DNA from: Lytechinus pictus
Taxonomy: Eukaryota
Direction of reading: 5' to 3'
Assembly (NCBI RefSeq): GCF_037042905.1
Contig: NC_087245.1
Location: forward strand, 4,838,001-4,902,000
Length of the DNA stretch: 64,000 bases
Shown here in pieces: positions 4,174 to 60,138 of this stretch. The notes under the pieces are model-generated. The model worked only from the letters and a program-made list of their open reading frames with translations. It was not told the DNA's origin and searched no databases. Both the position numbers and the translations under genes were made by a program. Position 1 is the stretch's first letter, and each line of letters starts with the position of its first letter.

Positions 4174-4393
4174 CTGTAATCATAACAGATAATAACCAAG
4201 ATGTTGTCATGGTTATTTCAAATTTACAATGAAATCTAAGAAATAGAGTTATTCTATTAAATGCACTTTAGTAGGTCTATTCCTACAACACCAACCATTG
4301 TATATTGTATTAAAATACTTTTCTTTTAATACATGTACATTAATTCTTTCTAAAATATAGAGCATTTGGATGTTTATAATGTTTAGCACTTAA

Positions 4394-4993
4394 AGGTCAA
4401 GTCCACCTCAGAAAAATTTTGATTTGAATCAATAGAGAAAAATCAGACAAGCACAATGCTAAAAATTTCATCAAAATCGGATGTAAAATAAGAAAGTTAT
4501 GACATTTCAAAGTTTCGCTTATTTTTAACAAAATAGTTATATGAACGAGCCAGTTACATCCAAATTAGAGAGTCGATGATGTCACTCACTCACTATTTCT
4601 TTTGTTTTTTATTGTTTGAATTATACAATATTTCAATTTTTACAAATTTGACGATTAGGACCTCATTGCCTGAACCACAAAATGTTAAAATAATGGAATT
4701 CTACGTGTTCAGGGAGGAATACTTCATTTCATATGACAATGACGAGAAAATCAAAATATTTCATATTTCATAAAATAAAATACAAAAGAAATAGTGAGTG
4801 AGTGATGTCATCGGTTCCCTCATTTGCATACTGACCGGGATGCGCATATAACTGTTTTGTGAAATGAAGCGAAACTTTAAAATGTCATAACTTTCTTATT
4901 TTACATCCGATTTTGATGAAATTTTCAGTGTTATGCTCGTTGAATTTTTCTCTTTTTATTCAAATCAAGTTTTTGTTGGGGTGGACTTGTCCT
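4394..4993. mobile_element. Kolobok-like MITE, ~600 bp
   Basis: TTAA on both sides. Termini AGGTCAAGTCCACC / GGTGGACTTGTCCT with long imperfect inverted arms. An inverted near-copy lies at 48066-48656. Confidence 0.85.
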
Positions 4994-7167
4994 TTAATAA
5001 CAAGCCACTAAAATAATAAATCAAACATTCACATAAATGCACCCCAAATTGCTTTTAAAAATAAAAAAATAATACATGTATACAGGGAAATAACATATTA
5101 CTTCAATTACATTGTGAGGATGTGAGCCCTTTTTTCTACAATGTCTGTGTAATAGGATTAACTTTCAGGTTTTTAAAGACAGAATGTTAAAATTACCGGT
5201 ATTGCTTGGTCATGATTGTACAGGTTTTAGAAACATAATATTCTTAATATCTTATTTCATTCATTTCTTTATTCATTGACTACTCGGAACTTGGAAGGTA
5301 CTACAAAACAAGATAGAAACATATTTATTCTGTCTGTAATGCACACTTTATATTTTGTAAGCACTTGGAGAGTACAATTATTGTTATATTGTAAAGCGCT
5401 TTGTGCATGTTTACATGAAGAAGTGCTTTTTAATGTAAAAATGTATGTATGTACAGCATTGTGTCATTCTTCTATTATGCCTTTAGAATTCTATCATGAT
5501 TGACCATATTGCTGAGTCTCTGTGTAGACTGCAATGCTGCACAAAAAATACAAAACGCACCACAAAATATAAGTTTCATCTCATCAGCTGCAGTCCGACT
5601 TTGTGGTTAATCATGGTATGGACTGAATAATGTACATGTACAACTAAACATTTTTGTTGTTGTTGTAATATTACAGAGGCTCAATCATGCATTATGTACT
5701 TTCATATATATGCGTCATGCAATTCAAATGTTTACTTGCCCACATACATGTACACTAACAAGCAATAACAAGGATGTTTACATGAGACTGTGTCTCCTGA
5801 TGTGTACAGTAATATCAAGGAAGATGACTCAAATTGTGTGCCATAAATCCCCTAGGAAAGATTATTTTCACAGGACACATTCTTTTTTATGTGTTTTTCA
5901 GGTTATCATTTGAGTGTGTAATGTTTTGTCATTCAAGTTTTTAAACGGGATGTTTAAGACTCTAAAAAGTCAAACTATGAAAATCAGGAAGGTTTACAAC
6001 AACAAACAGCAGCTTTTAAACACATCAGCACACTTACATGTACATGTAAGTGTGCATACACACAGGCCTCCTTCATAATTTTCCTTCAAAACAGGAAAAT
6101 TTGTAAGAGATCATTTTCATTTATGAATTGTGTTGTTGACATTCACTGACTTTACAAAAGGAAAATAAACTTCCCTGGTTATTAATAGTCATGGCTAAAA
6201 ACAAATTATATATACAGTAGACAAGCAATGATTTATAAATTATTTTCATTCTACATATCACAGCAGAATCAAACAACTTTCTCCTTTATTCTTGTAGAAA
6301 GGTTCACTCACTACACATGTACATGTACACATGCAGTTTTAGTACCCCTAAAACCTTGCATGTTCAAAATTTCAACACAGAAAAACAATGATTAAAGTTT
6401 GAAATCCTGCTAGTCATTATACACAAACAAAGCACCCTGCAGAATTCAAATCTAAAATAAAAATGATTCATGCAAGATCTATAATAGGAAGGAAGTACAA
6501 GTGTACTTTAAGTTCAGTGTCAAATGATGATTGCTATGAGCCTGCTATAAAGGGCATTGGCAAGTACATTGGAAATAGCTTTGAACCATATGCTGCTGAC
6601 TGCATAAAAACAAATATTACATGTAGGGCTACATGTTTATTTACAGAAGGCCTAGATGTATTTTCCATCGGTGTTCATGGTATTCCTAAATACAACGGCA
6701 GTAGATTTTAGGCCTACTTTACGTCATTCCGCTTTTACAACCTTCTACCATGCACATCATATCATACATACATGTACATATGTAGTAGAGACCTTGCCTG
6801 GACATTTTGTTTCAAAATGGAAAAACAAGAAGTGCAGTGTACATGTGCCTCTTTTTTTTGAAAATCCTGTCAGTGAGCACTTTTAGAAATGTACGTCCAC
6901 ATAGTGGACTGGTACGAGATGACGTCATTTTTTAGCCTGCCATATGCCTCAGGTCCTCACACACGTCCACTATCAGAATCGAGAACCTCGCCACATCCAT
7001 TTTGCGGTTCTCCTAAATCATAGTGGACGTGTACGTGGGTGACGTCATTTTGACCGTTCAAGCCCAGCGTGAAGATCAACCTTTCCCTTTTAAAACACAG
7101 TTTTCAGTGACTTTTCACAAAATTAATGTAAGTTGTACGATGCACTATGTTTATCATATTTGGAATT

Positions 7168-14064: not shown

Positions 14065-15115
14065 AACAAGTGGAACGCCTCTGGCAGTCTCGCCTGCATT
14101 ACACGATTCGATATAGCAGCAATGCTGACTTTGAAAACAGCTAAATAATAATTATTCACAAAAGAAAATACTAATAAGATAACAAAATACTAAGTCCATT
14201 GACTCAACATGACCTTTGACCATGATCATGTGACCTAAGACATGTGCAAAACATACTTGATTACCCTTATGTCTATGTTTCATGAACTACATGTGTAGAT
14301 CCATAAACTTTAAAAGTTATGCCAATTCAACAAATACCCCCAACATGGCCAAAGTTCATTGACCTTAAATTACCTTTGATCTTGGTCACGTGACCTGAAG
14401 GGCGCACAGGATATTCAGGGATACATGGTTACTCTTATGTCAAAGTTTCATGAACTAGATCCATAAAATTTTAAAGTTATGATGACAATTCCAAAAATAC
14501 CCCAACATTATCAAAGTTCGTTGACCCTAAATGACCTTTGACCTTGATTGTGTGACCTGAAACTTGCACAGGATGTTCAGGGATACTTAATTGCTCTCAT
14601 GTCTAAGTTTCATGAACTAGATCCATAAACTTTTAAAATTAAGATGACAATTCCACAAATACCCCCAAAATGGTCAAAGTTCATTGACCCTAAGTGACCT
14701 TTGACCTTGGTCATGTGACCTGAAACTCAGGCAAGATGTTCAGTGAGACACTATTACCCTTATGTATAAATTTCATGAACTAGGTCCATATACTTTCCAA
14801 GTTATGACAACATTTCAAAAACTTAACCTTGGTTAAGATTTCGATATTGATTCCCCCAACATGGTCAAAGTTCCTATACCCTAAATGACCTTTGACCTTG
14901 GTCATGTGACCTCAAACTAAGGCAGGATGTTCAGTAATACTTGATTACCCTTCTGTCTAAGTTTCATGATCTAGGTCCATATACTTTCTAAGTTATGATG
15001 ACATTTCAAAAACTTAACCTTGGTTAAGATTTCAATGTTGACAACGCCACCGTTGCCGCCGTCGTCGGAAAAGCGGCGCCTATAGTCTCGCTCTGCTATG
15101 CAGGCGAGACAAAAA
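14065..15115 (-). mobile_element. Helentron-associated non-autonomous element (HINE/DINE-1-like) with internal tandem repeats
   Basis: Subterminal inverted repeats GTCTCGCCTGCAT (14087) / ATGCAGGCGAGAC (15098). Terminal hairpin GTCTCGC...GCGAGAC. A/T-run insertion site with no TSD. ~160-bp internal units containing TGACCTTTGACC. Confidence 0.75.
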
Positions 15116-15246
15116 CTAGAGTGAGAAAATTATAATAACCATGACAGTAAATGACATAGATAGTAAATAAAACCCTCAAAAAAATTCTTGAGGATGTCTG
15201 CACAAAGATATTTGAAATTTTGATAAATTGCTGTAGATATACTCAC

Positions 15247-15437: not shown

Positions 15438-16131
15438 CTATAATCAATCATTAAAAAATAAATAAACAAAAGTAAGTGTACATGTATATACAATGTACCA
15501 CAGATAGTACAATGTACTTCTACAACAAAGACATACTGTATGATAAAGTAGAGACTGAAAAGTGATTCTATAAAAATACAACAGACTACTGAACATGGAG
15601 TTTTTATTCCATCTGTATCTTATTTAGTGATTGAAAATGATATTCAAAGCATACATGAAGGCCTACTTGGTATCATTCAGAAGAGAGAAAATAGAAAAAG
15701 GAGAGAAGCAACATCTATTTAGAGGAATAGAGACAACAAAAGATATAGAGTGTAGAAAGAAATATCACTGAGACAGGGAGAGTGTCCTTCACCAGGATGA
15801 ATGCGTATAGAAAAATAGGAATAGACCTTTGAAGCAGGAGATAAAAAAAAGGAAAAAGACAGGGACAGCGAGAGAGAAAGAACTGAGTACATGTTGTATG
15901 TATAAAGAAAGTGTTGGTGGAGGGTGGATAATATGTAGGAGACTAGGTCTTGGCTGGTCGTTATTGTGCCCAATAAAGCAATGTAAAACATTCCTGCATG
16001 GGAAATGAACTTTTTAAATCCCTCTGAAATGCCATTCCAATTGCTCACATGCTCTGAAATAAATTGCATGTAATGTTGCTCTCATTTATTTGTATCATAC
16101 TTTAGAGTCTGTTATTGAGAAAATCACTCAC

Positions 16132-16688
16132 CCACAGTCTGGCGCCGGGCACCATCGACAATCTGGGTCCATCATGAGTAGTCTCCGTAATGTGAACTCC
16201 TCATATTTATTCATAAGAGCACTGTCTTGCAACACGAGTTTAATGTCATTCGGATGAAGAGGCTCTGCGCATTCAGGACATGCAATGTTCACTCGACTCT
16301 CTGTGATTTCAATCTTCAGGTACTGACGTAAGCACTCCCGACATGAGCGGTGGTCGCAAGTGATGATCTCTGGAAACTGTTCCTTTGGTCGTTCCATTAG
16401 GCACAGAGGGCACTCCATTGTGCCGGGCCCCTTCTTATTGGTGCTGTTGATGTAGGCTGCAGCACTTCGTGACCGTCCGACCTGTCGTGTGCTTCGTGGA
16501 GTGCCAAGCCCGCTATGATCCGAGTCGGTACTGCTCTTGCGCGGTTTGGATCGCCCTGACCAGAAGCGAAAGAACCCACCTCCTTGCTTTCTGTGCTTGG
16601 AGACAGTGGAATCTATGCTGTTGGCCTGTGAGCCTCCAGACTGTACTGATCGGGTGTCCATGTCCGTAGATTTCATTGTGAGTTGCAT
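16132..16688 (-). CDS. RNF19A: RNF19A/B-like RBR E3 ubiquitin ligase, first coding exon (N-terminus, RING1, start of IBR)
   Basis: Translation contains ECPLCL...[30 protein letters not shown]...[26 protein letters not shown], typical of RNF19. An in-frame TGA lies two codons upstream of the ATG at 16688. Donor GG|GTGAGT at 16132/16131, phase 2. Confidence 0.93.
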
Positions 16689-17237
16689 GAGTCAAACTCA
16701 ATTAAGAGTGAAACTTTAAAATAATCAGAAACTTTTAATCTAGCTTACATACACAAGAACGCCCAAATATCATTCCTTTCCAAAATGAAAACTGAATTTT
16801 TCCAAAAGAACTCCTTCCTCACCACCTTCACTCTGTCACCTGATCAATGTGATGTCACATGATCATCTCCTATGATGCTTCTACCATCCCCATTCAAACT
16901 CAAATACATGGTCATCTCCAAAATAAAAGAATTTTGTAATGGTAGCCGAGATCACATCCCAATAGCTTTCTCCTCCCGTTTTCCTCTCTTTTTTTACCTT
17001 GAAGGAATAGAAATGATGGGGGATACTCTAAGTCTTGGTGATCACTGATAGATGACTATGATAAGAGCAGAAAGGTACTCCAACCTCTAGTGGGAGATGA
17101 AACAATGCAAGACAAAATTCAGGTGTTTCCAATGGCTTTAGAGCAAGATGACTATCTATTGAGATGAATCGGTCTCTTCTTGTTTATCCACAGGATAGGG
17201 TACGAATGTCCAGCTCCTGCCCTTCTTCTTAAGTGCC
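16689..17237 (-). other. Probable 5' UTR portion of the first coding exon of the RNF19-like gene
   Basis: Strong polypyrimidine tract plus CAG acceptor (CTTTTCTTCATCTTTTTCATTTGTGCAG|) at 17238-17265 on the minus strand. Confidence 0.5.
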
Positions 17238-28093: not shown

Positions 28094-29217
28094 AACAAGT
28101 GGAGCGCCTCTGGCTGTCTCACCTGCATCGCGCGATTCAATATAGCAGCAGTGCTGACTTTGAAAACTACTATAAAATAATTATTCACAAAAACACCATT
28201 CATATAATGATACAATACTACGTTCATTGACATTTGACCTTGATCATGTAACCTAAAACTTGTCAGTGATACTTGATTACCCCTATATCCACATTTTATA
28301 AACTATATCTTTAAACTTTGAAAGTTATGACAGCAATCTAATAATTAACTCCAAAATGGCCAAAGTTCCATGACCTTAGATGACTTTTGACTTTGGTCAT
28401 GTGACCTGAAACTCGCATGAGATGTTCAGTGATACTTGATTACTCTTATGTCCAAGTTTTATGAACTAGATCCATACACTTTATCAGAATTATGAAGGTT
28501 ATTCAACAAATACCCCCAACATGGCCAAAGTCCATTGACCTTTGACCTTAGTCATGTGACCTGAAATTCGCACAGGATGTTCAGTGATACTTGATTACTC
28601 TTATGTCCAAGTTCTATTAACTAGACCAATAAACTTACAGTTATGTTGTTAATTCAACAAATACCCCACCATGGCCAAAGTTCATTGACCTTAAATGACC
28701 TTTGACCTTGATCATGTGACCTGAAACTTGCACAGATCCATAAACTTACAAAGTTATGATGGTAATTCAACAGATACCCCCAACTTTGCCAAAGTTCATT
28801 GACCCTAAATGACATTTGACCTTGGTCATGTGACTTGAAACTCCGGCAGGATGTTCAGTAGTACTTGATTAACCTTGTGTCCAAGTTTCATGAACTAGGT
28901 CCATATACTTTTTAAGTTATGATGTCATTTCAAAAACTTAACCTTCGGTTAAATTTTGATGTTGATTCCCCCAACATGGTCTTAGTTCATTGACCCAAAT
29001 GACCTTTGACCTTATTCATGTGACCTGAAACTCAGGCAGGACGTTCAGTAATACTTGATTAAGCTTATGTCTGAGTTTCATGAACTAGGTTCATATACTT
29101 TTTAAGTTATGATGTCATTTCAAAAACTTAACCTTCGGTTAAGATTTGGTGTTGACACCGCCGCCGTCGGAAAAGTGGCACCTATAGTCTCACTCTGCTA
29201 TGCAGGTGAGACAAAAA
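28094..29217 (-). mobile_element. Second HINE/Helentron-like copy
   Basis: Same termini and internal repeat units as 14065-15115. A third, decayed copy appears to start near 29757. Confidence 0.78.
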
Positions 29218-31167
29218 CAGGTATTTTTTTAAATCACAGGTTTCTTTTCACAACCTACTGCCTACCTAAAATCTGCCTCATTGGATAAGCTTTAACACTG
29301 CAGTTAATTAAGATTTTCCAGGGTTCTTCCTTTTGAGCAAGAGCCCTCATGAGTTTTGTTCCCCTGCACAGAAACCTCAATTATGATTGACTGTTAGCCC
29401 TAACAAATTTGGCAAAGTTCTACAACCCCTAGATAATGTGAACGGTATTCCATACATACATGTATGTACATGTAGATGTTAATACAGATAGTTCTGTTTA
29501 TTTTGATAGTAAGAAACCTTAAGAGGCAAAAAGAACAACCAAAAAGGAAGTATATGCTCCTAATCTCTGTTGATACAGATATCATGCTAATGATATCTCC
29601 ATAAGGATAAGGTTAATACACTTTCCTTTGACCTGACCATTATTTCATCCATGACCAGACCATGTATTGTATATTCCCAGCCCTTGGCATGTTGTTATTG
29701 TTTTTTTTTTTTTTGGGGGGGGGGTGTTTTTGTTAAGTACATTTATTGCCACTTGCTTAACAAGTGGAACATAGCAACAGTGTTGACTTTGAAAATAACT
29801 ATGTAAAAAAATGATTTTTTTTTTTTAAAGAGATAAAACACATTCATTTGATAATAAAAATGTACATGTAGATGTAAGTTGAATTCATCCGCCGGCTGAT
29901 ATTTGATACATATGAAAGTTTTATGAAATAGGGACTTACACTTTATCTTGAAAATTCAAAATCTACCTTGGTTAGGTTTAAAATATTGATAGCACAATAA
30001 GGTCAAAGTTAATTGGCCCTAAATAACCTCTAACCTTGATCATGTGGCCTATACCTCTACAAGATGATCAGAAAGACCCTGTTCTCATCTACTTTCTTCA
30101 ACTGGTTTCCCTTAAACCAGTGTAGGAAACCAGGTTAGAAGATCACTTTAATAAAAAGTACATGTCGATTCAAACTTTTTGGTTTACATTTTGTGACTAT
30201 TTGCAACATTTTTTTTTCAGACAAGAGGACACTGCTTCATGTAGCTTCAATTGGTAAACTCCTTTTTTTCTCCACCTTTGGTATACATTTGAAATACTGT
30301 ATCTTTGTACAAAACTGGAAAATCTGATAAAAGTCACATGAATTTTGATGGAATATACTGTAGGGGATTTTGACATTAATGTTTTGACTTTTGATCCTGT
30401 GATGAGGTCTTCAACAGTCTTGGATATGCCATGGTATTTCAACCTGACTTTCAATTCTGTGAACTTCGAAGTCCCATAGAAAAGGGAATAAGAAAACAAA
30501 CTTTGTTTGATGATGACAATTGACAATGATGCTGATGTTCGTCCTTCGCTTGCATAGACGAATACAACTTCACTAATTAACTAATTAGTTTTTTACTGTG
30601 TGGAGTGTGGACCAATAGCATCCTCAGTGTCAGAGGTTGCTGTCAAAAGCTTAATTTAATTACACAAGGAAACATCTCACATAATTGCAAAGGCAGATTA
30701 TCAAAATAAGTAAGGAGCATTTGATGAAGTCAGGATTCAGGAAACATGATGGCTCCAGAAACTTCATGATCAGCATGTGGAATGTAGAGGAATCTGCATG
30801 TGGCATTGATAAAACGTCACTGACATAAACAGTTCAATGACTTCATTCCCGGATGCTCACAGTTCCTTTTAACAAGAAAACAAGATTGTTTTTCCCGGGA
30901 TGGTGAAGTACAATTATGAAAAAAAGTTAAGAAAAGAAAAGAACAGAACATATTGTGATGGTATTCATATTATCATTGGTAACACCCTATTTCAAACCTT
31001 GCCATGCCATGTGAGATTTTAAAAGGGAACCTGAAAATTTTAATAGTGAACATATAAATATAAAGAAAGGCATTGTATATGGCACGCCCATAGGGAAACA
31101 ATTATATATATATTTCACTGGAAAAAAATATGTTTCTCTTCTACTAAACCATTTCACTCAAAGAAAT

Positions 31168-31522
31168 TTATATTTCACTTTTCAAAAAAATATATTTCAC
31201 TTTTCAAAAAAAATATATTTCACTTTTCAAAAAAATATATTTCACTTTTCAAAAAAATATATTTCACTTTTCAAAAAAAATATATTTCACTTTTCAAAAA
31301 AATATATTTCACTTTTCCAAAAAATATATTTCACTTTTCAAAAAAAATATATTTCACTTTTCAAAAAAATATATTTCACTTTTCAAAAAAAATATATTTC
31401 ACTTTTCACAAAAATATATTTCACTTTTCAAAAAAATATATTTCACTTTTCAAAAAAATATTTTTCACTTTTCAAAAAATAATATATTTCACTTTTCCAA
31501 AAAAAATATGTTTCACTTTTGA
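31168..31522 (+). repeat. 21-22-bp minisatellite (TATATTTCACTTTTCAAAAAAA)n in the left foldback arm
   Basis: Directly visible tandem array of roughly 15-16 units. Confidence 0.95.
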
Positions 31523-31981
31523 AAAGAATAATTTCACTTGTTACATTTTAATTTTGAAAGAAAACAAATCCTTTCACTTTTGTTGGATATCACATGCGGC
31601 TGCCGTATTAGACCGTACGTAAAATTCATCTATCTATCTATCTACCTACATGAAATATCTATCTATCTCTCTGCCTAATAAATATCTATCTGTTTAAATC
31701 TATCTATCTATCCATCTATCTGTCTGTCTATTTATCTATCTATCTCTCGAACTATTTATTTTTCTATCTATCTAACAATTATCTGTTTAAATATGTCTGT
31801 CTATCTATCTATCTGTCTGTCTCTTTATCTATCTATCTATCTATCTAATATCTATTTATTTATTTTAATATGTCTATATCTGTTTATTCATCATTCAATC
31901 TATCTATCTATATAATGATTTATCCGGCTGTTTAAATGTCTGTATATCTGTCTTAATTTCTATCTATCTGCCTATTTATCT

Positions 31982-32110
<129 letters not shown>

Positions 32111-35100
32111 CAGCTATCTATCTATATATCTATCTATCTATCTATCTTAAGTCTATCTGTTCAAAATATGTATGTCTATCTGTATGTCTACCTTTTATCT
32201 TTCAATCTAATGTCTATTGATCTGTGCAAATAATCATGTCTGTTTATTTGTCTGTTTATCTATTTAATATCTATCTACTAAATCTGTTAAATATGTTATT
32301 CTATCTGTCTATCTATCAATAAATATATCGATCTATTTTCTCTCTATCTATACATCTATCCATCTATTTATCTATCTGTGTATGTACGTATGTATCTATC
32401 TGTCTCTGAATCAGGGGCGGAAATCTCTCCCAAAAGGTAGGGGGGACACAGTGGCGGATCCAGCCTTCGCCAATAGGGGGGGCGGAAATTTGTTTCAGCC
32501 ATATTTTCCCCGATCGGCAGCTCGAAGAAGATTTTTGTTTGTTTCTTTGAAGGGGCAGTCCTCCTTAGTCACTTCTTAGCTTTTATCTATTTTCTCTCTA
32601 TCTATATATCTATCCATCTGTTTATCTATCTGCGTATGTATATATGTATCTATCTGTCTCTGAATCTATGTGTATATCAAATATAATATCATAATCACCG
32701 TTATCGGCATCATCATATTTGCCATCAATCATCAGCATCATCCTCCTCATCGTATTTTTTATCATCAATCAATATCTATCTAATGTCTATCTGTCTATCT
32801 ATCTAATACCTATTTATCTGTTTATATCTATCTATATATTAATCCCTTTTATTAATATATATCTATCTTCTATTGATCAATCCACCTATCATTTATCTCT
32901 CCAACCATCGATCTATCTATCTATTTATCTATCTTTCTTATACGTATCTGTTTAAATATGTATGTCTATCTGTCTATTTATCTTTCATACTTATATCCAC
33001 TCATTTGTATAAATAATTATGTCTGTTTATCTACGACCGACCACCTAATTCGTCCGCACGACGAATTAAAATCTAGTTTCTTTTTCACTTGTTACATTTT
33101 AAATCTGAGAGAAAACAAATCCTTTCACTTTTGTTGGATAACACATACGACGGCGGCTGCCGTATTAGACTGTACGTAAAATTCATTCCTCACGTAAAAA
33201 TCCATTCCTCTCGCTACGTAAAACATTTCACTCTTGTTGCAAAATTCATTTCACTCAATTGCAAAAAAATACGTTCCTCTTTTTTTTCGGCCTGTAGGCG
33301 GCGCACATCATTGTTGGCAGGACGAGGTAACAGAGATGGTTGCAAAATTTTCGCTGTGCTGAGGGGAGAAATCATGAATCCGGTTGCAACACACAAAGTG
33401 ACAAGGATATGGGGATACCAGCGAACCCAATTACGACACTTTCCCACGCGTGCCCGAGAATACACCGCGAGGTGGGCCCATGAACACAAAACATAAAGTT
33501 TGATTTTATTGCTGATTATGCACAATAGCCAGTGCAATCAGCTGTTGCATTCTGCCCTACGATCAATCACTAACGTTTTGTAGGCATGATATGAAGCATG
33601 AATAGCTCCACGCATGGCACTACACTATCTCCGGAGCTAAATGGACAAGGTGTTGAAATTTCCCTTTTCTCCATTCCGTCTGTCTTTTACTTCATTGACA
33701 TACGATAATCGCGATGATTGATGAATTGAAGCTTACAAAAGGCTACATTTCACTGGTCAACTCGCTTGTACTTCCGTTGCAAAACCAAATTCTCACCATT
33801 TTGTCACGGGCAGTGCTTCTTCAAACCAGACATAGGCGGTAAAGCATACATGACTGAATGGGTGAAGACGTCATCGCTTTCGGTGGACATTCTCGGCTAA
33901 CACCAAATTTTTAGGGTTGAGCGATGACGTCATCACTTAACTTCAGTCCCGTATACTCATTTTTCATGTCTGTTCAAAAGACGGTGAGGTACTGCCCGTT
34001 CTGAGAGTATATAGCATTGGAAAACCCCCCATTCATGTCTCGGACAAACTGGAGAGAATTTGGTTTTGCAGTGCAGGTACAAGCGAGTTGACCAGTGAAT
34101 TGTAGCTCTTTGTAAGCTTCATTTAATCAATCATTACGATCATCGTATATCAATGAAGTAAAAGACAGACGGAATGGAGAAAAGGGAAATTTCAACACTT
34201 ACCTTGACCATTCAGCTCTATAGATAGTGTATGTATAAAGTATTCATGCCCCATGCCTACAAAACGTATAGCCAGACCGTGATAAGGTTAGTGATTGATC
34301 GTAGGGCAGAATGCAACGGCTGATTGCACTGGCTATTAAATTGTGCATAATCAGCGATAAAATCAAACTTCACGTTTTGTGTTCATGGGCCCACCTCGTG
34401 GTGCATTCTCGTGCACGTGGGAAAGTGACGTAATTGCGTTCGCTGATATCCCCATATCCTTGTCATTTTGTGAGTTGCAACCGCTTTCATGATTTCTCCC
34501 CTCAGCACAGCGAAAATTTTGCAACCATCTCTATTTCCCGCCAACAATGAAGCGCGCCGCCTACAGGCCGAGAAAAAAGAGGAACGTATTTTTTGCAATT
34601 GAGTGAAATGAATTTTGCAACAAGAGTGAAATGTTTTTCGAGAGGAATGGATTTTACGTGAGGAATGAACTTTACGTACGGTCTAATACGGCAGCCGTCG
34701 TATGTGTTATCCAACAAAAGTGAAAGGATTTGTTTTCTCTCAGATTTAAAATAACAAGTGAAACTAGTCGTGCGGACGAATTAGGTGGCCTGTCGTAGAT
34801 AAATAGATAAACAGACATAATTATTTAAACAAATGAGTGGATATAAGTATGAAAGATAAATAGACAGACAGATAGACATACATATTTAAACAGATACATA
34901 TAAGAAAGATAGATAAATAGATGGATGGATGGAGGGATAAATGATAGGTGGATAGATTAATAGAAGATAGATATATATTAATAGATAGATATATATATAT
35001 ATAACAGATAAATAGGTATTAGATAGATAGACAGACATTAGATAGATATTGATTGACGAAAAAATATACGATGATGAGGAGGATGATGCTGATAATGATT

Positions 35101-35166
35101 GATGGCAAATATGATGATGATGATAACGGTGATTATGATATATTTGATCTAAACATAGATTCAGAG

Positions 35167-36924
35167 CATGGGCGGAAATCCCAGGGGGGACAGGGGGACG
35201 TGTCCCCCCCTACTCAAAATAGTAGGGGGGACACAATATCAAATGTCCCCCCTACTATTTTTGGTCTTTTATGATGGTAAGAAATACATCATTCTAAATC
35301 GAAATAAAACATGTATTTGGGGACGAGTTGGGACAAGATGACCTTACTTTTGGGATAACCTTTTTTTTTGCTTGTCAAATGTTCCCGCCCCTTGTCCCCG
35401 TAGGCGGACCAGGGGGCCGAGGGGCCCGCCCCCCCTCCCCCTCTTGGCGGAGCAAAAAAAAGAAAAAAAACGGAAAGAAAGAAGGAATAAAAGAGGGAAA
35501 AGAGAGGAGAAAATGAAAAGGACGACGAGTGCATAAAACAAGATGAGGGGAAGACTTGGAAAATAAAAAGAATCTTTCGTGCCACTATATATAACATTTT
35601 AGCTCTCGCTTCGCGCTCGCATTGCCTGTTAGGTGATTTACATATCTTGTTCAATATGGAGCTCGAATGTCAAGTTTGGAAGTCAATATACAAAACATAT
35701 TTCACCTTGGAAATCGAACTTTCATTATTTTGTGTGATTTACAAATTGATTTTTAAAAAGTGCTCTGTAAAAATGTCAGTTTTATGGTCTGAATATTAAC
35801 ATTTGCTGCTTGCCTTACAATTTTTCTACAAAGTGCTTGAAATATAAAGCTGAAATTGACTCTTTTTTCAGATCGGAGTATCAAAGTTTCATGATTTACA
35901 TGATTATAGATATAGATATTATGTATATAGAATGCTTAGATTTATAGGTCTAAATAATTTATGAAACACACGCGCGCATGTTTATTCAGATACTCAACTT
36001 GTTCTCTATTTAAATCATTATCCAGTTTCAGATCACAATATCAAAATATTTCTGCTCGCGCTTTGTGCTCGCATTATTAATGTGGGAAGACCCAATATTA
36101 CTCATCCTTTTGTACATCATGAACAGAGTGGCCCATTTTTAGGTCTAAATCTCGTTTTTTTTTCAGCTTGCGCTTCGTGCTCGCATTTATTGATTGTTGA
36201 AATATGTAACGCCTTCATGGCTAAGTGCAAGCAGTCCTTAACAGTTACCTTTTCAACAGGTACCAGTTCAAAACGTATATAAAAATTTTCTGCTCGCGCT
36301 TTGCGCTCGCATTATTATTACTCACTCATCCTTTTCATGATTTACAAAACATGAGTAGAGTGTCTCGTTCAGTAAATATTATAGGACTAAATCTCGAAAT
36401 TTTACGCTCGCGCTTCGCGCTCGCATCAATTGTTTACTTATATACCTATTCTGCTTGAGTTTCAATTCTTTAGGTGAAAATGTCAAAAAAAAATTAGCTC
36501 GCGCTTCGCTCGCATTATTTGATTGTTAAATGCTACTTTAACAGGTATCTTTTCCATCAGTTTATTTCTGCTCGCGCTTTGCGCTTGTAGTAATTATTAA
36601 GTTGCATACACATCTTTTTCAGGATAACAAACATTGCCCAGAATGTTCAAATTTAAGGAAAAAATACATAAAATTTCCAAAAAATTAGCTCGCGCTTCGC
36701 GCTTGCATCATATAAATAAGGATTATGATACTATATATTAATTTATAAGAATAAAGCTAAGAAGTGTCTAAGGAGGACTGCCCCTTCAAAGAAACAAACA
36801 AAAATCTTCTTCGAGCTGCCGATCGGGGAAAATATGGCTGAAACAAATTTCCGCCCCCCCTATTGGCGAAGGCTGGATCCGCCACTGTGTCCCCCCTACC
36901 TTTTGGGAGAGATTTCCGCCCCTG
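35167..36924. mobile_element. hAT-like non-autonomous element in the right foldback arm, probably carrying a nested element at ~35399-36886
   Basis: TIR CATGGGCGGAAATC / GATTTCCGCCCCTG, TSD ATTCAGAG (35159-35166 and 36925-36932). Internal repeated GCTCGCGCTTCGCGCTCGCATT motif. Confidence 0.82.
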
Positions 36925-37635
36925 ATTCAGAGACAGATAGATACATAGGTACATACACAGATAGATAAATAGATGGATAGATGTATAGATAGAGAGAAAA
37001 TAGATCGATATATTTATTGATAGATAGACAGATAGAATAACATATTAAACATATTTAATAGATATATATTAAATAGATAAACAGTCAAATAAACATACAT
37101 GATTATTTGAACAGATCAATAGATATTAGATTGAAAGATGAAAGGTAGACATACAGATAGACATACATACTTTGAACAGATAGACATAAGATAGATAGAT
37201 AAAGATAAATAGGCAGATAGATAAAAAGACAGATAAATCATAAGATAGATAGATAGATAGATTGATTGATTGATAAATAAACAGATATACAGACATATTA
37301 AAAAATATTAGATAGATATATAGATAAAGAGACAGACAGACAGATAGATAGATTCGTAGATAGATAGACAGACATATTTAATCAGATAATTATTAGACAG
37401 ATAGATAGAAAAATAAATAATTTGAGAGATAGATAGATAAACAGACAGACAGATAGATGGATAGATAGACATATTTAAACAGATAGATATATATTAGGCA
37501 GAGTGATAGATAGATAGATAGATATATCATGTAGGTAGATAGATGAATTCTACGTACGGTCGAATACGGCAGCCGCATGTGTTATCCAACAAAAGTGAAA
37601 GGATTTGTTTTCTCTCAAAATTAAAAAAAAATTTG

Positions 37636-37990
37636 TTGAAAAGTGAAATATATTTTTTTCAAAAGTGAAATATATTTTTTTGGAAAAGTGAAATATATTT
37701 TTTTGAAAAGAGAAATATATTTTTTTTGAAAAGTGAAATATATTTTTTTGAAAAGTGAAATATATTTTTTTTGAAAAGTGAAATATATTTTTTTGAAAAG
37801 TGAAATATATTATTTTTTGAAAAGTGAAATATATTTTTTTGAAAAGTGAAATATATTTTTTTTGAAAAGTTAAATATATTTTTTTGAAAAGTGAAATATA
37901 TTTTTTTGAAAAGTGAAATATATTTTTTTTGAAAAGTGAAATATATATTTTTTTCTTAAGTGAAACATATTTTTTTGATAAGTGAAATAT
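37636..37990 (-). repeat. Reverse-complement copy of the 21-22-bp minisatellite in the right arm
   Basis: (GAAAAGTGAAATATATTTTTTT)n. Confidence 0.95.
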
Positions 37991-38297
37991 AAATTTCTTT
38001 GAGTGAAATGGTTTAGTGGAAGAGAAACATATTTTTTTCAAGTGAAACATATATTTAATTGTTTCCCTATGAGCGTGCCATAATTGTATCATATAGACAT
38101 CCAGAGATCTTTTCACAATCTCCAGAAACACCTATTCATCTGAGCAGAAATACTGAGAAAGCCTTCGCTTGACAAAATAACCTAGAGCTAAACCTTCCCT
38201 ATGAACATGTTAGCTTTGGAAAAGATAGCTTCCATATATATCAAAGTCTGGTTGGGAGGGGGGTGGGGGGGTTCATAAAGACTTAGGTGCGACTTAC

Positions 38298-38715
38298 ACC
38301 CTGTTCAGACTGTACCCTGTTACCCGGGACATCCCCCCGGAAAATCGACAGTTTGGATGGTCTGGAGGATTGTCCCCCGTCTCCCGGTTCTATCCCCCGG
38401 GTTTTTATAAGGAAGATCGACCTTGGCTCATAATCCGAGATCGCGCACCTGTTTTAAACTAAGTGCGCATGCGCAAAATGTGGTGTCAAGAGAATTGCTT
38501 CCGCTCTAGTACTGTGCTATATAGTGCTCGGCTAGCTGCAAGTAATTGCATTTCCCGCGTTATCATGTGCGGGCGCGCCTTACGTAACCATGCCGATGAC
38601 CTAGCCCACTCATCCCCCGGTGCCAATCTCCCGGACACCGGGGGATGAATGGACGGTCGGTCATAAAGAGATAAGATTTCTCTCCCCCTTCCCCCGGGTG
38701 ACAGTCTGAACGGCC
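38298..38715. mobile_element. Harbinger-like MITE
   Basis: Imperfect TIR CTGTTCAGACTGT / ACAGTCTGAACGG, GC-rich interior, TSD unclear. Confidence 0.5.
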
Positions 38716-42626: not shown

Positions 42627-44085
42627 AGGGGAATCCAGCCTTTGGCATAAAATTTTGTGTCGGAAAGGAGAAAAATAAATAAAACAGAATGGTGAAAGTT
42701 TGAAAGAAATCGGACAAGCAATGAGAAAGTTATGGCTACATTAAAGGTCAAGTCCACCTCATTAAAATGTTGATTTGAATTAAAAGAGAAAAAAATCAGA
42801 CAAGCATAATAATGTTGAAAATTTCACCAAAATCGGATGTAAAATAAGAAAGTTAAGACATTTTAAAGTTTCACTTATTTTTCGCAAAACAGTTATATGC
42901 ACAATTTACATGCAAATGAAAGAATTGATGATGTCCCTCACTCACTATTTCTTTTTTTTTATTGTTTGAATTATACAATATTTCAATTTTTACAGATTTG
43001 ACTGACAATAAGGACCAACTCAACTGAACCATATAATGTTAAACAATGGTAATTCCACATGTTCAGTGAGAAATAAAACTTTGTTTCACAGAACAATGAG
43101 GAGAAAATTAGAATATTTCATATTTCTCATAATAAAATACAAAAGAAAAAGTGAGTGAGTGATGTCATCAGTTCCCTCATGTGCATACTGACCGGGATGT
43201 GCATATATGATATAACTACATGTATAATGTGAAATTAAGCAAAACTTTAAAATGTCATAACTTTCTTATTTTACATCTTATACCCCTTTCATAAACCCAA
43301 TAAAACATGTCCTCCAATTAGCCGCCTAAGAGTAATGCGGATAATTCAATAAAAATTGCGTTCACAAACTCCATAAATTATTTTTACGAGCGCCCGTCCT
43401 GAAAAAGGCGGATAATCGTCATGACAACTGGACACGCCCCCTCCAATGCGGTTGTGTTGGAAAAGGGTGAACTTGTGACCGCACCATGGCAATTATCCGC
43501 ATTATTTGAAAATACGTTCATAAACTCAAAATCTTGTCCCGATGCCGCTATTTATGCGGATAATAGCAGCATCAGAATAATGCGGATAACTCTTGTCCTC
43601 CTCTGATTTTACGACCAAATTATGCTGCTATTAGCCGCATAATTGTGTTTTATTGGGTTTATGAAAGGGGTACAATTTTGACAAGGGGCAAGGACAACTT
43701 TTCCATGTACATTATCAGGGATTTGTGGTTTTCTCCTAAGTACCCATTCCTCTGGGGCAGTAGTCAAAATGTAACCCAGGTAGCATATTGTTTTATGTCC
43801 TCATGAAAAAAAAAAAATTAAAATAAAACTTTTGAAAAAATGACATTTTAGTCATTTTATATATCGGAGTACATAGAAGAGTATTCCTTGCCTGACGTCA
43901 CTATGCTATCACATATGCGGCCAATTTGAAGTCTCCATGTGTGTAGTGATTGCCAATTTTGACAACTTTTAAAAATTCCTAAATTTCTTATTATTTGTCC
44001 GATATTTTTTAAACTTTCGCCTATCAACTTGTCTGATTTTTCTTTTTCCTCTGAAAACAAGTTTTTATTTGGGTTGGATTCCCCT
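42627..44085. mobile_element. Kolobok-like MITE inside the SINE, containing a second Kolobok-like copy from 42745
   Basis: TTAA+AGGGGAATCCAGCC / GGTTGGATTCCCCT+TTAA. Inner TTAA+AGGTCAAGTCCACC at 42741. Confidence 0.8.
43283..43670. mobile_element. TA-flanked MITE, innermost insertion of the nest
   Basis: 25-bp TIR CCCCTTTCATAAACCCAATAAAACA / TGTTTTATTGGGTTTATGAAAGGGG with TA on both sides. Confidence 0.8.
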
Positions 44086-45310: not shown

Positions 45311-46343
45311 CAGAGATGCCAACTTTTGGAAATCAGAATTAGGGAGGATTTGCAACTGACACCAAATTATGTGCGCGTATCTCGAGCGCGGAGCGCTCGA
45401 CCCTTGCGGCCGGGGTCGAGGGCCCGCCTTAGGGCCCTGGAAGCTCTGGGTTTCTAGATGCTCTCTGGTGCAATCTGACCCTTATTTTGGAGCATTTCAC
45501 ATGTTTTTAAAAAAACATTGTTCCCACTTTTTTGACATAAAAATAAAAATATCAAATATGCATTTTACATGTAAAAAAAATGAGGGGACAATAGAAGAAA
45601 AGTACCTGTTCAACTATAATAATGAGGAATTATCCTCTTTATTATTATTAAAGCGCGGGTAACGTCTTCCTCCTCGCTGGTCCCTTGCTTGGTGAAATAA
45701 GTCAACAGGGTACTAGTGGAGCTCGAAGATCTCGTCTTCGCAATGTCCGTATGCCGTTTGCTCCCTACGTGCTTCCGAATATCATCACGACCTCCGTGCT
45801 CAACTTTAATGTCCACGCTGCAAATTGTGCAAAATGCATGGTAGATTCCTCTTTCCGACTTCCGAATACACGGGTACTGGAGACTGTATTCAGTCTTATA
45901 CTTCTGAGACCATTTCTTGGTCTTTTTTTTGTTGATTTTCCGCCATTTCGTGTCAATATCAACCCATCAATACGCCAAAATCACACACCGATATTCCATC
46001 GCACGACTCGACAAATCCAGCGGCCGCGAGCGCACACGCCGAAGCTAGCCGGGCCTACCGGCCTGGTGCACAGTGGATTCCCGTTGGGCATATCACATGC
46101 ACCAGCTTTTCGCTGCTCCTTATTTGTCTGCCTTTCACACAGAATTTAGTAGCAGCGAAACATAATGGAGTTACTACATGCTTAAGTCAGCAGACGATAC
46201 ATGTACTTCCAAGGAAGCTCCTTGATTTGATCAATGCAAAAAAAATCATAATTTCGGGAGGATAAGGATGGTAATCGTAAGGGCGGGAGTTGGGATGAAT
46301 TTTCGGGAGCCTCCCGATTTCATCGGGAGGGTTGGCATCTCTG
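45311..46343 (-). mobile_element. Internally deleted hAT-like transposon
   Basis: TIR CAGAGATGCCAAC / GTTGGCATCTCTG. 8-bp TSD TATTATTA / TAATATTA with one mismatch. Confidence 0.8.
45650..45946 (-). pseudogene. N-terminal zinc-finger fragment of a hAT-type transposase, frameshifted and truncated
   Basis: ATG at 45946 gives MAENQQK. After a +1 shift in an A8 run the frame reads KTKKWSQKYKTEYSLQYPCIRKSERGIYHAFCTICSVDIKVEHGGRDDIRKHVGSKRH (CxxC...H...H). Confidence 0.65.
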
Positions 46344-47995: not shown

Positions 47996-48065
47996 TTTTT
48001 AATGTTATTTATCATCCTACGTGTATCTTTATCATTTCTACAATATAATGGAACTGATTGATTAA

Positions 48066-48656
48066 AGGACAAGTCCACCCCAACAAAACTTGATTTGAAT
48101 AAAAAGAGAAAAATTCAACAAGCATAACACTGAAAATTTCATCAAAATCGGATGTAAAATAAGAAAGTTATGACATTTAAAAGTTTCGCTTCATTTCACA
48201 AAACAGTTTGATATGCACATCTCGGTCGGTATGCAAATGAGGGAACTGATGACATCACTCACTCACTATTTCTTTTGTATTTTATTATATGAAATGTGAA
48301 ATATTTTTATTTTCTTGTCATTGTCATGGTGAAATGAAGTTTCATTCCTCCCTGAACACGTTTAACATTTTATGCTTCAGGCAAAGAGGTCCTAATCATC
48401 AAATTCGTAAAAATTGAAATATTGTGTAATTCAAACAATAAAAAACAAAAGAAATATTGAGTGAGTGACATCATCGACTCTCTCATTTGGATGTAACTGG
48501 CTCGTTCATATAACTATTTTGTTAAAAATAAGCGAAACTTGGAAATGTCATAACTTTCTTATTTTACATCCGATTTTGATGAAATTTTCAGCATTGTGCT
48601 TGTCTGATCTTTCTCTATTGATTCAAATCAACATTTTTCTGAGGTAGACTTGACCT
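48066..48656. mobile_element. Kolobok-like MITE, inverted relative to 4394-4993
   Basis: TTAA TSD at 48062 and 48657. Termini AGGACAAGTCCACC / GGTAGACTTGACCT. Confidence 0.88.
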
Positions 48657-49043
48657 TTAATGAACCAAACCGTTTTCTAAAGTACAAAATAAGAAATTAT
48701 ATGAAATTTTAGCGTGCAACATTAACCTTATGTACTACTCACATAAGATATGACTTGTTCTCCGGTCTTTCTTATACCCTCTTTATTTCTTCCCCTTCCT
48801 TTCCTTCTTGTTATCTTTTCTTTCTCTTTCTCTCTTTTCTTCTTTTCCGTTCCTTCTTCTTACATCTTAATAAATTAAGTTTTGTTTGCCCTGCCATTAG
48901 CATTTAGTTTCACATTTTCTTTATAATTCTATTCTTTCGACTTCAATGTTTCCTTCTTCATTAAGCCTATTGTGAATGTAAAGATAAATTATATATATTT
49001 CATTTACAGATGAGATTCAGACATCCCCATTGCACATGAAATA

Positions 49044-49562: not shown

Positions 49563-49928
49563 CACTACAGCCAATATAACTGGTAAGCACATATTTAACA
49601 GACAACAACAACAAATTACCTACTTTCCACAATTCAAATCCAACAAATTAATATTTTGAAACAAAATAATTATCCTTCAAAGCAATGGGGCATAGTACAT
49701 GTAAGCAGTTTGCACTAATGAGTAAAGCATCAAGGCATATAGCTCCCGGGCATACCAATATGCAACTTTCACATCTTTGGCATCGACATTGCATGTGTTG
49801 ACAAAGCTAATTGTTTTCATATTCAGTTCATTCAGCAGGATTGGCTGATTTAAATCACGTTGATTTTAATCGCGATTTAAATCGCGATTTAAATCACTGT
49901 GATCATTTTTTTCAAATCATTGATTTAA

Positions 49929-50687
49929 AGGTCATATCCACCCCAGAAAAAAAGAGTTTAATTGAATAAACATAGAGAAAAATCAAACAAGAATAACGCT
50001 GGAAACTACATCAAAATCGGATGTAAAATAGTTTATGATAACATTTTAAAGTTTCGCTTATTTTTCACAAAACAGATGGGTGTTTTATAAAGCTGTTCGT
50101 AAGTTAAGAGCGACTTTAAGAACGATTTGAGATCCTTTCTTGTGGTAAATTGTATATACATTGGCGATGGTTTATCGCGTAAGAAGTGTTCACCAGTCGT
50201 TCTTTAAGTCGCTCTTAACTTGTGAACAGCTTTATGAAACGGCCCCCAGTTATAATGACAATTCAGTGATATGAAAATTAGAGAGTCGATGATGTCACTC
50301 ACTCACTATTGCTTTTGCATTTTTACTGTTTGAATTATACAACATTTCAATTTTTACGAATTCAACAAATAGGACCCTCTTGTTTGAACTACTAAATGTT
50401 AAAACAATGTAATCCCACATGGTCAGGGAGGAATGATTTTTTTTTCATAAAAATATTTCATATTTCACATAATAAAATACAACAAAAAAATGAGTGATGT
50501 CATCGCCATAATTTGCATACCGACAAGGATTTGCATATAACCACGGTTTTGTGAAATTAAGCAAAAATTTTAATCGTCATTACTTTCTTCTTTTAGATCG
50601 GATTTTGATGAAATTTTCAGTGTTATGCTTGTCTGATTTTCTCTTACTATTCAAAGCAGCTTTTTGTTGGGGTGCATGACTTTTCCT
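49929..50687. mobile_element. Kolobok-like MITE with a nested Harbinger-like MITE (50076-50246)
   Basis: TTAA TSD inside a host GATTTAAATC motif. The inner palindromic element is flanked by a CAG duplication. Confidence 0.75.
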
Positions 50688-51599
50688 TTAAATCATTTCC
50701 ATTGAAACATGTACAAATTATTTGGGATTTTTTATTGTTTGTGGCAGTTTTACTTTTTAAATTAAAAAGAAAAAGATTTTACCAACTTTATATCATGAGA
50801 ACAGGAATAAATCCTTCATATCTACTCAGAACAATTGAAATCAAATCAATGAAATCAAGTCAATCTTGCAAAACCAAAGATGAACATGTAGCCTACATTA
50901 TATGCGACCCCTACTCAACTTGTATGTATGAGTAGACTTTGTTAATAGTAAAACAAATTTCTTGTTTCTTTATGTCAAAATTCAAAAGTGTTTTAGAGGG
51001 CAGTTTTCAAGAAAGTAAAGGAACTCTGAACTTATTAGGCTGAATCTCAACATGATAGATTTTTGCCAGGATGGGTTATAACCATGGATCCTATACTAGA
51101 AAAAGCCTGTTCAGACATTCTGAGTAGGATTGTGCTTCATTCAGCCAGTTCACTGAAAAAGGTTCAGTAATTAAGTACATGTACATTTATTTTAAAATAT
51201 GTATGAATGTTCTTGGCAAAGGGCACTAACATGACTAAATCATAACAACTATACATTTTAGTGCCCTTTGCCAAAATGATTTATGTTTGTACATTTTTAA
51301 GTGAATATTTTGAATTGAGTACAATAAAAGTAAAAATCGGCAACGTCCCTGCTTACCCAATACACCGATATTTTAACATTTCTATTCCTTTACATGTTCC
51401 TGTATTCAAATAAATAGGCCGACACAGTAGTATAAGGGAACCCGTTTTCTTATTTTAGCAAGACTGCTGCTAAAATACTAGTTTTCCAGTTTATTGTAAA
51501 CGAAATCATTTAAATCAACTTGCAAGTTTGTCAAAACTTTGCAAGCCAATGCTTTGAAACAGTCAAATAGTTCCAACTATGGCTCAAAGAAGAACTTAA

Positions 51600-52197: not shown

Positions 52198-53152
52198 TTA
52201 AGGTTGATACAAACAAAAATAAATGCAGTCGGTCAAAGCTTTGAAAGCCAATGCTTTGAAACAGTCGTTCCAACTGTGGCTCAAAGAACAACTTGGGGTT
52301 GAAACAAACAAAAGATAAATGCAGTTTTCTTTAACATGTATGATCTTCAATCCTTGACCTGAAAATAAAATTTAAAAAATATATCTCTTTGGAGAACTTG
52401 AATCTCTGAGTCATGGAATTCTTCCAAATAAACTGATCCTCATTAAATACCAAGAGCTTTGAAAATGAGCACCAACTTTGCATGTTTGCAGCATTAGCTG
52501 TACCAAGACAGTTATGTACTTTAGACACAGCAGAAAATGTCAGCTTCTTTATGGCTTTAATATTTTCTACAAATTATATTTTGACTGGATTTGATTATGA
52601 AATAGTTAAGAATAATTTTGGTGGTGAAATGCATAATTTTAAAATTGATGTCAGTGTGAAGGGTTATATTTTGGGTGTTTGCACTTTGTTAAAAAAAAAT
52701 TTGTTAGAAAAAATCAGATTGAAATTTAAAAAAATCTGATTTAAATCAAATAGATCCGATTTAGGTTTATATAAAAAAATTGCCAACATTTTCATTCAGC
52801 ATACTTTTGAGTTTGAAAGTACCTGATTATCACATACATTATGGCTGGCATAAAAACACTTTTAATACAAAGGTGAACGAATGTTGCTGGGCATGACAAC
52901 TTACACAAGGCTAATTAAGGCTAATTAATATCAAACTGAGCTAACATAACAGTAAAACAGGTTGAATACAGTAGCATCGAGAAGTGACTACAAATACAAG
53001 GTCCAATCAAGAAACTATGGTTAGAAGTTAATTCCAAACAGGAACAAAATAAAACATAGCTATCATGTTTGATTAAAAGTATGATAGTTTACAAACTTAC
53101 AATCGTGAAATTTAAGATTTTCATTTTGTAAACTATCATATTTAATATTTAA

Positions 53153-53926
53153 AGGAGAATGAAACCCTTGAACCCAGCTGAATCCATATAAAAGAGAAAA
53201 ATCAAAGAAACATATTGTTGAAAGTTTGAGGAAGATTGAATGAATAATAAGAAAGTTATGAGCATTTGAATATTGAGATCACTAATGCCATGTAGATCCT
53301 CCCATTGGCAATGCGACCAAGATCTGTGATGTCACACACGTACAACTCCCTCATTACTTTAGTACTTATTTCACTTATATTCTCACTTTTATAGAGCCTA
53401 TCACAAGGTGAGGTGTTCTCTTTATGAGAGGACAAGTACAGAGGTTTCACAACATTATATCATTGATGAATCGTTTGTCATATGATTAGAATGAGCAAAA
53501 AGAGATGTTTTGGGGTATATTTTCAGTGTCCAAAACTGGACAACTCTCCCCTTTTGGACACTGAAAATGTACCCCAAAACATCTCTTTTTGCTCATTCTA
53601 ATCATATGACAAACGATTCATCATTGTTGTGAAACCTCTGTACTTGTCCTCTCATAAAGAGAACACCTCACCTTGTGATAGACTCTATAAAAGTGAGAAT
53701 ATAAGTGAAATAAGTACTAAAGTAATGAGGGAGTTGTACGTGTGTGACATCACAGATCTTGGTCGCATTGCCAATGGGAGGATCTACATGGCATTAGTGA
53801 TCTCAATATTCAAATGCTCATAACTTTCTTATTATTCATTCAATCTTCCTCAAACTTTCAACAATATGTTTCTTTGATTTTTCTCTTTGATATGGATTCA
53901 GCTGGTTTCAAGGGTTTCATTCTCCT
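53153..53926. mobile_element. Near-perfect palindromic Kolobok-like MITE
   Basis: TTAA TSD, ~380-bp arms with few differences, 16-bp spacer. Identical mirror ORFs at 53256-53450(-) and 53629-53823(+). Confidence 0.92.
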
Positions 53927-53959
53927 TTAAGTTCTGAATTTTATGAGAATGGTGTTTTT

Positions 53960-59700: not shown

Positions 59701-59744
59701 CACGCTGTATTTGTAGGCCTACATAGTGCATTATTTAAAAATAC

Positions 59745-60138
59745 AAATCTGCTTTCCTGTCAATTAAGCTTTACTTTCAAAACATTTTAAATCGCAATTA
59801 ATTATAATAAGAACAAAATCGTAATATTAAAGTATGATGAATGACTAAAAATATTTCTCCCGCTCGTGATGGACACATTCATTATTTTATAGGCGAGTAT
59901 AGAACAATACAAATGAACATATAGGAATAATTGACAGTGAGTATAAATCTACTTTCCTGTCAATTAAGCTTTACTTTTAAAACATTTTAAATCACAATTA
60001 ATTATAATAAGAACAAAATCGTAATATTAAAGTATGATGAATGACTAAAAATATTTCTCCCGCTCGTGATGGACACATTCATTATTTTATAGGCGAGTAT
60101 AGAACAATACAAATGAACATAGCAATAATTGACAGTGA
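59745..60138 (+). repeat. Near-perfect tandem duplication with a 200-bp period
   Basis: AAATCT(G/A)CTTTCCTGTCAATTAAGC...AATAATTGACAGTGA occurs twice, at 59745 and 59945. Confidence 0.92.

Follow-up and report, generated by a model that had tools for sequence, protein, structure and literature searches.

The left arm of a foldback DNA transposon carries a 254-bp block that was copied from the mirror position of the right arm and that stops abruptly inside an insertion held in full by the right arm alone. The element lies within the window, by which we mean the whole stretch of 64 kb of DNA analysed here, and its features are collected in Table 1. Sequence was transferred from right to left, the transferred tract can be delimited to the base, its junction with the older left-arm sequence is legible, and a left-arm allele that is 254 bp shorter is present in independent sequence. 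There is a high probability that the observation itself is real. As to its origin, we consider it moderately probable that a break in the left arm was followed by strand invasion of the mirror arm, by copying that was aborted within the insertion and by end joining, which together make a repair-mediated duplication. This is a known type of DNA-repair error.

Table 1. Features of the foldback element and of the copying event, in positions of the window.
Feature	Position	Strand	Basis or remark
Host foldback (long palindromic, non-coding) DNA transposon, 7.0 kb	31081..38079	.	Self-BLAST and arm alignment; ends
Left arm, recipient	31081..33805	+	Self-BLAST, arm alignment; ATCT-rich block, inner unique part
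22-bp tandem array in left arm	31169-31539		
Central spacer, 237 bp	33806..34042	.	Self-BLAST match 32658-33805 vs 35166-34043
Right arm, donor, split by 1758-bp insertion	34043..38079	-	Self-BLAST, arm alignment
Complete insertion, 1758 bp, short outer element	35167..36924	.	13/14 terminal bases match
8-bp TSD ATTCAGAG, left of insertion	35159..35166	+	
8-bp TSD ATTCAGAG, right of insertion	36925..36932	+	
Nested element within insertion	35400..36887 (about)	.	7-bp repeat TGTCCCC on both sides
Copied tract, 294 bp	32290..32583	+	Ungapped diagonal vs 37046-36753; 2 substitutions (32388, 32569), no indel
Donor stretch of copied tract	36753..37046	-	Ungapped diagonal differences
Candidate converted lead-in upstream of duplication	32290..32330	+	0/41 differences; chance 0.075, weak
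New flank copy, right-arm type	32331..32411	+	1/81 differences vs right arm
Mirrored TSD at end of new flank copy	32404-32411		
Copied insertion end, 172 bp	32412..32583	+	171/172 identical to 36924-36753
Junction base, one T absent from donor	32584..32584	+	Filler, T-run slip or original left-arm base
Original left-arm flank, 5 private variants	32585..32666	+	Self-BLAST, ungapped diagonal
Empty target site in original flank	32658-32665		

The foldback element and its surroundings

Self-comparison of the host element gives arms of about 2.7 kb each. Both of its ends start with GG and are flanked by AT, and since a 7-bp direct repeat lies slightly outside these dinucleotides (31072-31078 and 38083-38089), the true length of the TSD is not fully settled. 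An AT TSD and a TIR starting with GG are shared with ISL2EU elements, but the bases next to the AT are T and A where ISL2EU has the target context A-AT-T, and the arms are far longer than the ISL2EU TIR range of 6-259 bp. Because target context and TIR length both disagree, we leave the foldback out of that group. A Pfam scan of two ORFs from the element gave no match and no transposase family. Other copies of the family are represented by many contigs in organism B and by a few variant contigs in the public run X1.

The insertion in the right arm is complete, as the first-pass annotation had it (35167-36924 with a TSD), and the 8-bp sequence ATTCAGAG is present on both sides. The one character that points to a hAT-like element is this 8-bp TSD, and the short TIR also fits hAT. 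The Pfam scan of one ORF from the insertion gave no match and no hAT transposase. A TSD of 8-9 bp has also been described for Merlin elements (PMC4482050), so that the TSD length is not exclusive to hAT.

Further features were noted in and around the foldback. Its left arm contains a stretch of some 130 bp of pure ATCT (31983-32110), far longer than the right-arm mirror and situated about 220 bp upstream of the copying event. A short piece of a separate high-copy repeat also lies inside the left arm (33036-33085), where contigs end loosely at 33035 in four of four runs and contig depth is much higher. Just to the right of the element, a GC-rich stretch includes a GC palindromic motif (38464-38475), which we take to resemble an NRF1 site. 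If this stretch is the promoter of the RING/IBR gene, the foldback lies in a 5' intron. The exon at 16131-16691 on the minus strand encodes a RING domain and the start of an IBR domain (Pfam), and its product is presumably an RNF19-like RBR ligase. Together with the repeat content, this exon marks the window as animal DNA.

Elsewhere, the window holds two arrays built from a related unit of 155-191 bp (14065-15116 and 28094-29218), a family of palindromic elements of about 600 bp (4390-4998, 42740-43277, 48060-48661 and 49925-50691), a separate hairpin whose 320-bp arms match at 97% (53135-53944) and, on the minus strand at 45613-45966, an ORF that looks by eye like a transposase zinc-finger remnant and has no Pfam match. 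A tandem duplication of about 200 bp with 96% identity (59742-60138) is possibly another one born of repair.

Copied tract, duplicated flank and arm divergence

The last background difference between the arms before the tract is at 32289. The tract that follows is composed of 122 bp of flank (the 41-bp lead-in and another 81 bp) and 172 bp of the doubly nested insertion, the latter running through 36 bp of the outer element's end and the nested TSD into the start of the nested element. A nearly identical fragment of about 175 bp (32412-32586) had been reported at this mirror site; its exact length is 172 bp, ending at 32583, with 171 of 172 positions identical. That it includes the nested-element junction, as had been claimed, is confirmed by contigs of other copies, which depart from the window at 32447/32448 and run on as the outer element's own sequence, so that the junction marks a true nested insertion. 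Elsewhere in the 64-kb window, on both strands, no site matches the 172-bp block at more than 95 of 172 positions, and the three-layer junction of foldback flank, TSD with outer end, and nested element occurs within the window in the right arm only.

Beyond the block the flank begins again, in accordance with the repeat of about 80 bp and the empty site at about 32658 that had been described earlier: the duplication measures 82 bp (32331-32412 and 32585-32666, with a period of 254), and the empty site is found at 32658-32665. Three diagnostic variants between the two copies had been named correctly (32353/32607, 32366/32620 and 32379/32633), and two more were found (32387/32641 and 32388/32642). 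The first copy differs from the right arm at 1 of 81 positions and the second at 5 of 81 (6.2%, equal to the arm background of 6.1%), which agrees with the original reading that the first copy is close to the right arm while the second has its own variants, and which identifies the first as new and derived from the right arm and the second as the old left arm.

The intact right arm indicates copying and not inversion or deletion. Simple rearrangements were rejected on geometry: deletion of a full left-arm insertion would not leave a second, differently diverged flank copy, and neither a simple or double inversion between the arms nor ends made by a transposase would leave an intact right arm together with two differently diverged flank copies. 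A route in two steps, in which the full insertion was converted into the left arm and the product then underwent non-homologous exchange with an empty left-arm allele, or alternatively a one-ended event driven by a transposase, would yield the same list of parts. We hold this to be extremely improbable, given that the second, diverged flank copy cannot arise by simple deletion, that identity in the arm alignment falls to background straight after the inner TSD, and that neither border of the 254-bp block coincides with a transposon end and no new TSD accompanies it.

Apart from the tract, 97 of the 1584 aligned sites distinguish the arms (6.1%; 93.9% identical), along with many indels, in counts that exclude the 22-bp array (15/353) and a poorly alignable microsatellite stretch (31816-32134). 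Against this background the tract, with 2 differences in 294 positions, stands out (Fisher p=1.2e-5), also when the most diverged inner part of the arms is removed (p=1.2e-4), and its identical run of 180 bp was reached in 0 of 10,000 permutations; with the flank part of the tract alone, the permutation result is borderline (p=0.052). The sharp peak of arm identity that had been predicted to end at 32586 was thus recovered, and it ends at 32583. Divergence is otherwise uniform at about 5.2% in five of six arm segments (p=0.84). The innermost 235 bp (33571-33805 vs 34043-34270) differ at 26 of 223 sites (11.7%), compared with 71 of 1361 (5.2%) elsewhere (Fisher p=7e-4).

The event had also been expected to show how the arms are homogenised, and this part of the first-pass annotation is not supported. 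Long identical runs are not in excess beyond the tract (longest 55 vs a shuffled mean of 64, permutation p=0.75), and the arms are 6.1% diverged. The event left the old flank in place and added an asymmetry of 254 bp, making the arms less symmetric, and true conversion is at most confined to the 41-bp lead-in (chance 0.075).

A shorter left-arm allele in an independent contig

Parts of the region are present in 12 of the 14 listed public runs, none of which covers half of it. Four runs (X1, X2, X11 and X12) were compared, all as contigs, in a comparison that omits the repeat-masked positions 32296-32409 and 32584-32663, so that the new junction and the middle of the shorter allele lie outside its coverage. 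A 456-base contig from X1 (record 1) aligns to 32151-32295 and 32664-32827 without gaps and with two differences in each piece; in the window, the two arms are separated by 10 substitutions over the first piece and by 7 substitutions and 5 gaps over the second. Being far closer to the left arm of the window than the arms are to each other, the contig represents the left arm. Between the two pieces it has 114 letters where the window has 368, and the difference of 254 equals the period of the duplication. This contig, of left-arm type on both sides, is the pre-event allele, as seen in one contig at a depth of 7.3.

Over seven pieces from six of the seven records listed among 37, 8 of 1165 sites differ between X1 and the window (0.69%), a figure that leaves out record 6, which is right-arm-like with 13 differences, and four gap letters of record 7. 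The divergence between the arms is about nine times this allelic difference, and the divergence between copy and donor (0.68%) equals it, which places the event at about the age of the allelic variation. All three of the X1 differences shown (32212, 32706 and 32707) have the right-arm letter. In X11, X12 and X2, family copies or relatives are present, and this locus was not found at high identity. A metagenome scan with a 21-base pattern of the site gave one match, which was rejected as unrelated and a product of chance, with only 22-23 bases shared.

An assembly artefact or a mixing of haplotypes, in which a left-arm contig crossed over to the other haplotype's right arm and was then reconnected, would be in keeping with a block that is missing from the sole independent sequence across the site (the X1 contig) and with a copy that diverges from its donor just as the alleles do; palindromes are moreover hard to assemble, and the junction is masked in four of the four runs compared. 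We regard this as very unlikely, however, as two switches would be required, the second of them without overlap, the copy departs from the assembled right arm and has the family letter at 32569, N is absent from the window, and the anatomy of the product is exactly that of a known repair class.

It is likewise highly improbable that the sequence came from a different genomic copy of the foldback, one that had inherited the same nested insertion, and not from the right arm present here. Other copies do exist (the contigs of organism B and the X1 variants), and a donor of this kind would explain both differences in the tract, which look derived on the right arm; at 32569 the loose-end consensus of X2 (13 contigs, agreement 0.64) has the left-arm letter, which suggests that the right arm may have changed at this site. 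Nevertheless, a right-arm allele accounts for the two differences equally well, and the element would need to have moved after gaining both insertions. Neither the window nor one metagenome scan yielded such a copy, the local arm lies just 4.2 kb away with 99.3% identity, and repair-mediated duplications have a strong preference for donors within 5 kb (824 of 1136 in the survey by Pace et al. 2009; PMC2671141).

Junction, proposed repair course and known systems

The two borders of the block are of different kinds. The left one stands at the exact mirror position, which indicates guidance by homology, and the right one is without homology. Past the last shared base, the donor reads ATTCT and the junction TATCT, while the right-arm version has a G before the flank, so the homology at the junction amounts to 0 bp plus one untemplated T, or to 2 bp (AT) given slippage in the run of T. 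Homology of 0-2 bp is not above chance in AT-rich DNA. The first-pass annotation had proposed repair templated by the opposite arm that was aborted and rejoined through ATCT microhomology; the copying from the right arm, the stop within the insertion and the rejoining where the old flank begins are supported, whereas the ATCT microhomology is absent. A candidate in-register TCT match at 32586-32588 was also rejected, as it predicts donor letters at 32584-32585 that are not found there. At a junction without clear microhomology, a preference for polymerase theta over other forms of end joining is not indicated.

In the repair course that we infer, a double-strand break in the left arm near 32331 would have been followed by invasion of the right arm of the same element, about 4.2-4.5 kb away and inverted, on the same chromatid, the sister or the homologue; the donor would thus be at this locus and not a daughter copy. 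Synthesis-dependent strand annealing (SDSA) would have begun, with some 250-290 nt synthesised, covering the 81-bp flank and then 172 bp of the insertion unique to the right arm. The new strand would then have been released inside the insertion. It would have failed to anneal with the other end by way of the 94%-identical flank and been end-joined to that end instead, using 0-2 bp of homology and adding one base, possibly by joining of the polymerase-theta type. The outcome would be a templated insertion of 254 bp and a duplicated flank without loss. The overlap of 81 bp offered a clean annealing site that was left unused, so the aborted-repair model must invoke chance or mismatch rejection.

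Replication could have given the same product through a template switch of either polarity, which we view as a doubtful though conceivable origin. A stalled nascent strand would have moved to the right arm and back, in a four-point switch of type 1-4-3-2; in the variant of opposite polarity, covered by the same joint assessment, the leftward-growing bottom strand would have folded back on the right arm, with mis-priming 172 bp inside the insertion and a return through long homology. The left arm has no net loss (254 being the duplication period), the site lies in ATCT-rich DNA close to the long stretch of pure ATCT, and pairing between the arms is feasible. The four-point model, as presented in PMC5453318, likewise yields a reverse-complement fragment from a nearby strand, by which local sequence is replaced or extended, the order fits 1-4-3-2, and this type accounts for 31% of those events there that are high-confidence. 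However, the model describes short-range switches within one fork, a scope that a jump of more than 4 kb and 254-294 bp of copied sequence would exceed. With rightward polarity the donor would lie ahead of the fork, which by geometry would make self-templating impossible, and the reverse polarity would need priming with 0-2 bp of homology.

Under aborted arm-to-arm repair, the locus is a natural example, apparently polymorphic, whose nested insertion records the donor, the direction, the tract and where copying stopped. It reveals no new mechanism, and upkeep of arm similarity by such copying is not demonstrated. The configuration can be used as a search pattern, whereby one-sided insertions are counted across foldback copies in haplotype-resolved assemblies, and such counts would indicate how frequent arm-to-arm repair is and how many finished events there are per aborted one. 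We also considered a broader proposal, unlikely in our judgement, that aborted arm-to-arm repair ordinarily builds the modular arms of this foldback family and that later complete conversion mirrors the captured DNA. Each aborted event would then leave a duplicated flank around captured DNA, the ATCT block being an older mirrored event and the 254-bp patch a first step that is still polymorphic. A segment of about 95 bp occurs twice per arm and brackets the 1.45-kb ATCT block (31546-31629, 33097-33186, 34665-34754 and 37543-37620), and the block ends in the short high-copy repeat piece (about 33036-33085). The bracketing segments resemble the duplicated-flank signature at a larger scale.

Our literature search, conducted at the level of titles and abstracts without supplements and with few subscription papers, returned no aborted arm-to-arm event in an invertebrate foldback. 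The closest comparison is with the repair-mediated duplications surveyed in vertebrates by Pace et al. 2009 (PMC2671141), of which the proximal ones average 162 bp and reach 619 bp, with microhomology, filler or deletion at their breakpoints. That survey dealt with insertions, 50 bp or longer, that break up a transposable element, and here 254 bp interrupt the left arm. The donor (36753-37046) is on the same chromosome and 4169 bp from the copy, within the 5 kb of the survey. The survey also calls for a donor present at a single other site of the genome; within the 64-kb window the copied block is unique. The breakpoint shows a 1-nt filler or 2-nt microhomology without polyA, and an empty allele is provided by record 1 of X1 (114 vs 368 letters, in one contig with its middle letters masked). 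[quoted passage not shown]

A second likeness is with aborted SDSA, in which synthesis primed by homology stops early and is end-joined, matching a flank of 82 bp that is present twice with the first copy of donor type. The Drosophila P{wa} assay counts aborted SDSA among its standard classes (PMC8951532), failed SDSA intermediates are reported to duplicate the copied sequence once end-joined, as in the tandem duplications of C. elegans helq-1 (PMC8654963), and the junction classes listed in PMC2895639 include insertions of 1-3 bp, microhomology of 1-3 bp and blunt joins. Those systems, as described, use sister or allelic templates in engineered assays or mutants, whereas here an inverted arm at an ectopic position is the template in a natural event.

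Palindromes of mammalian sex chromosomes, as characterised in PMC8981503, share with the foldback a non-reciprocal transfer between arms, but their arms are more than 99% identical, while those of the foldback are 93.9% identical and give no indication of further recent tracts. Neither identity above 99% nor an excess of long tracts, by which a palindrome maintained by conversion is recognised, is thus seen in the foldback. For Galileo (PMC3573991) and for Mutator homomorphs (PMC10401008), the sources propose that a broken TIR is repaired on the other TIR, with neighbouring sequence copied to the mirror position, as here. These proposals derive from finished, symmetric products, whereas the present event is unfinished, keeps both versions of the flank and concerns a different element family. 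With donor, direction, tract and stopping point all marked by the nested insertion, it backs the Galileo and Mutator proposal that the arms serve each other as repair templates.
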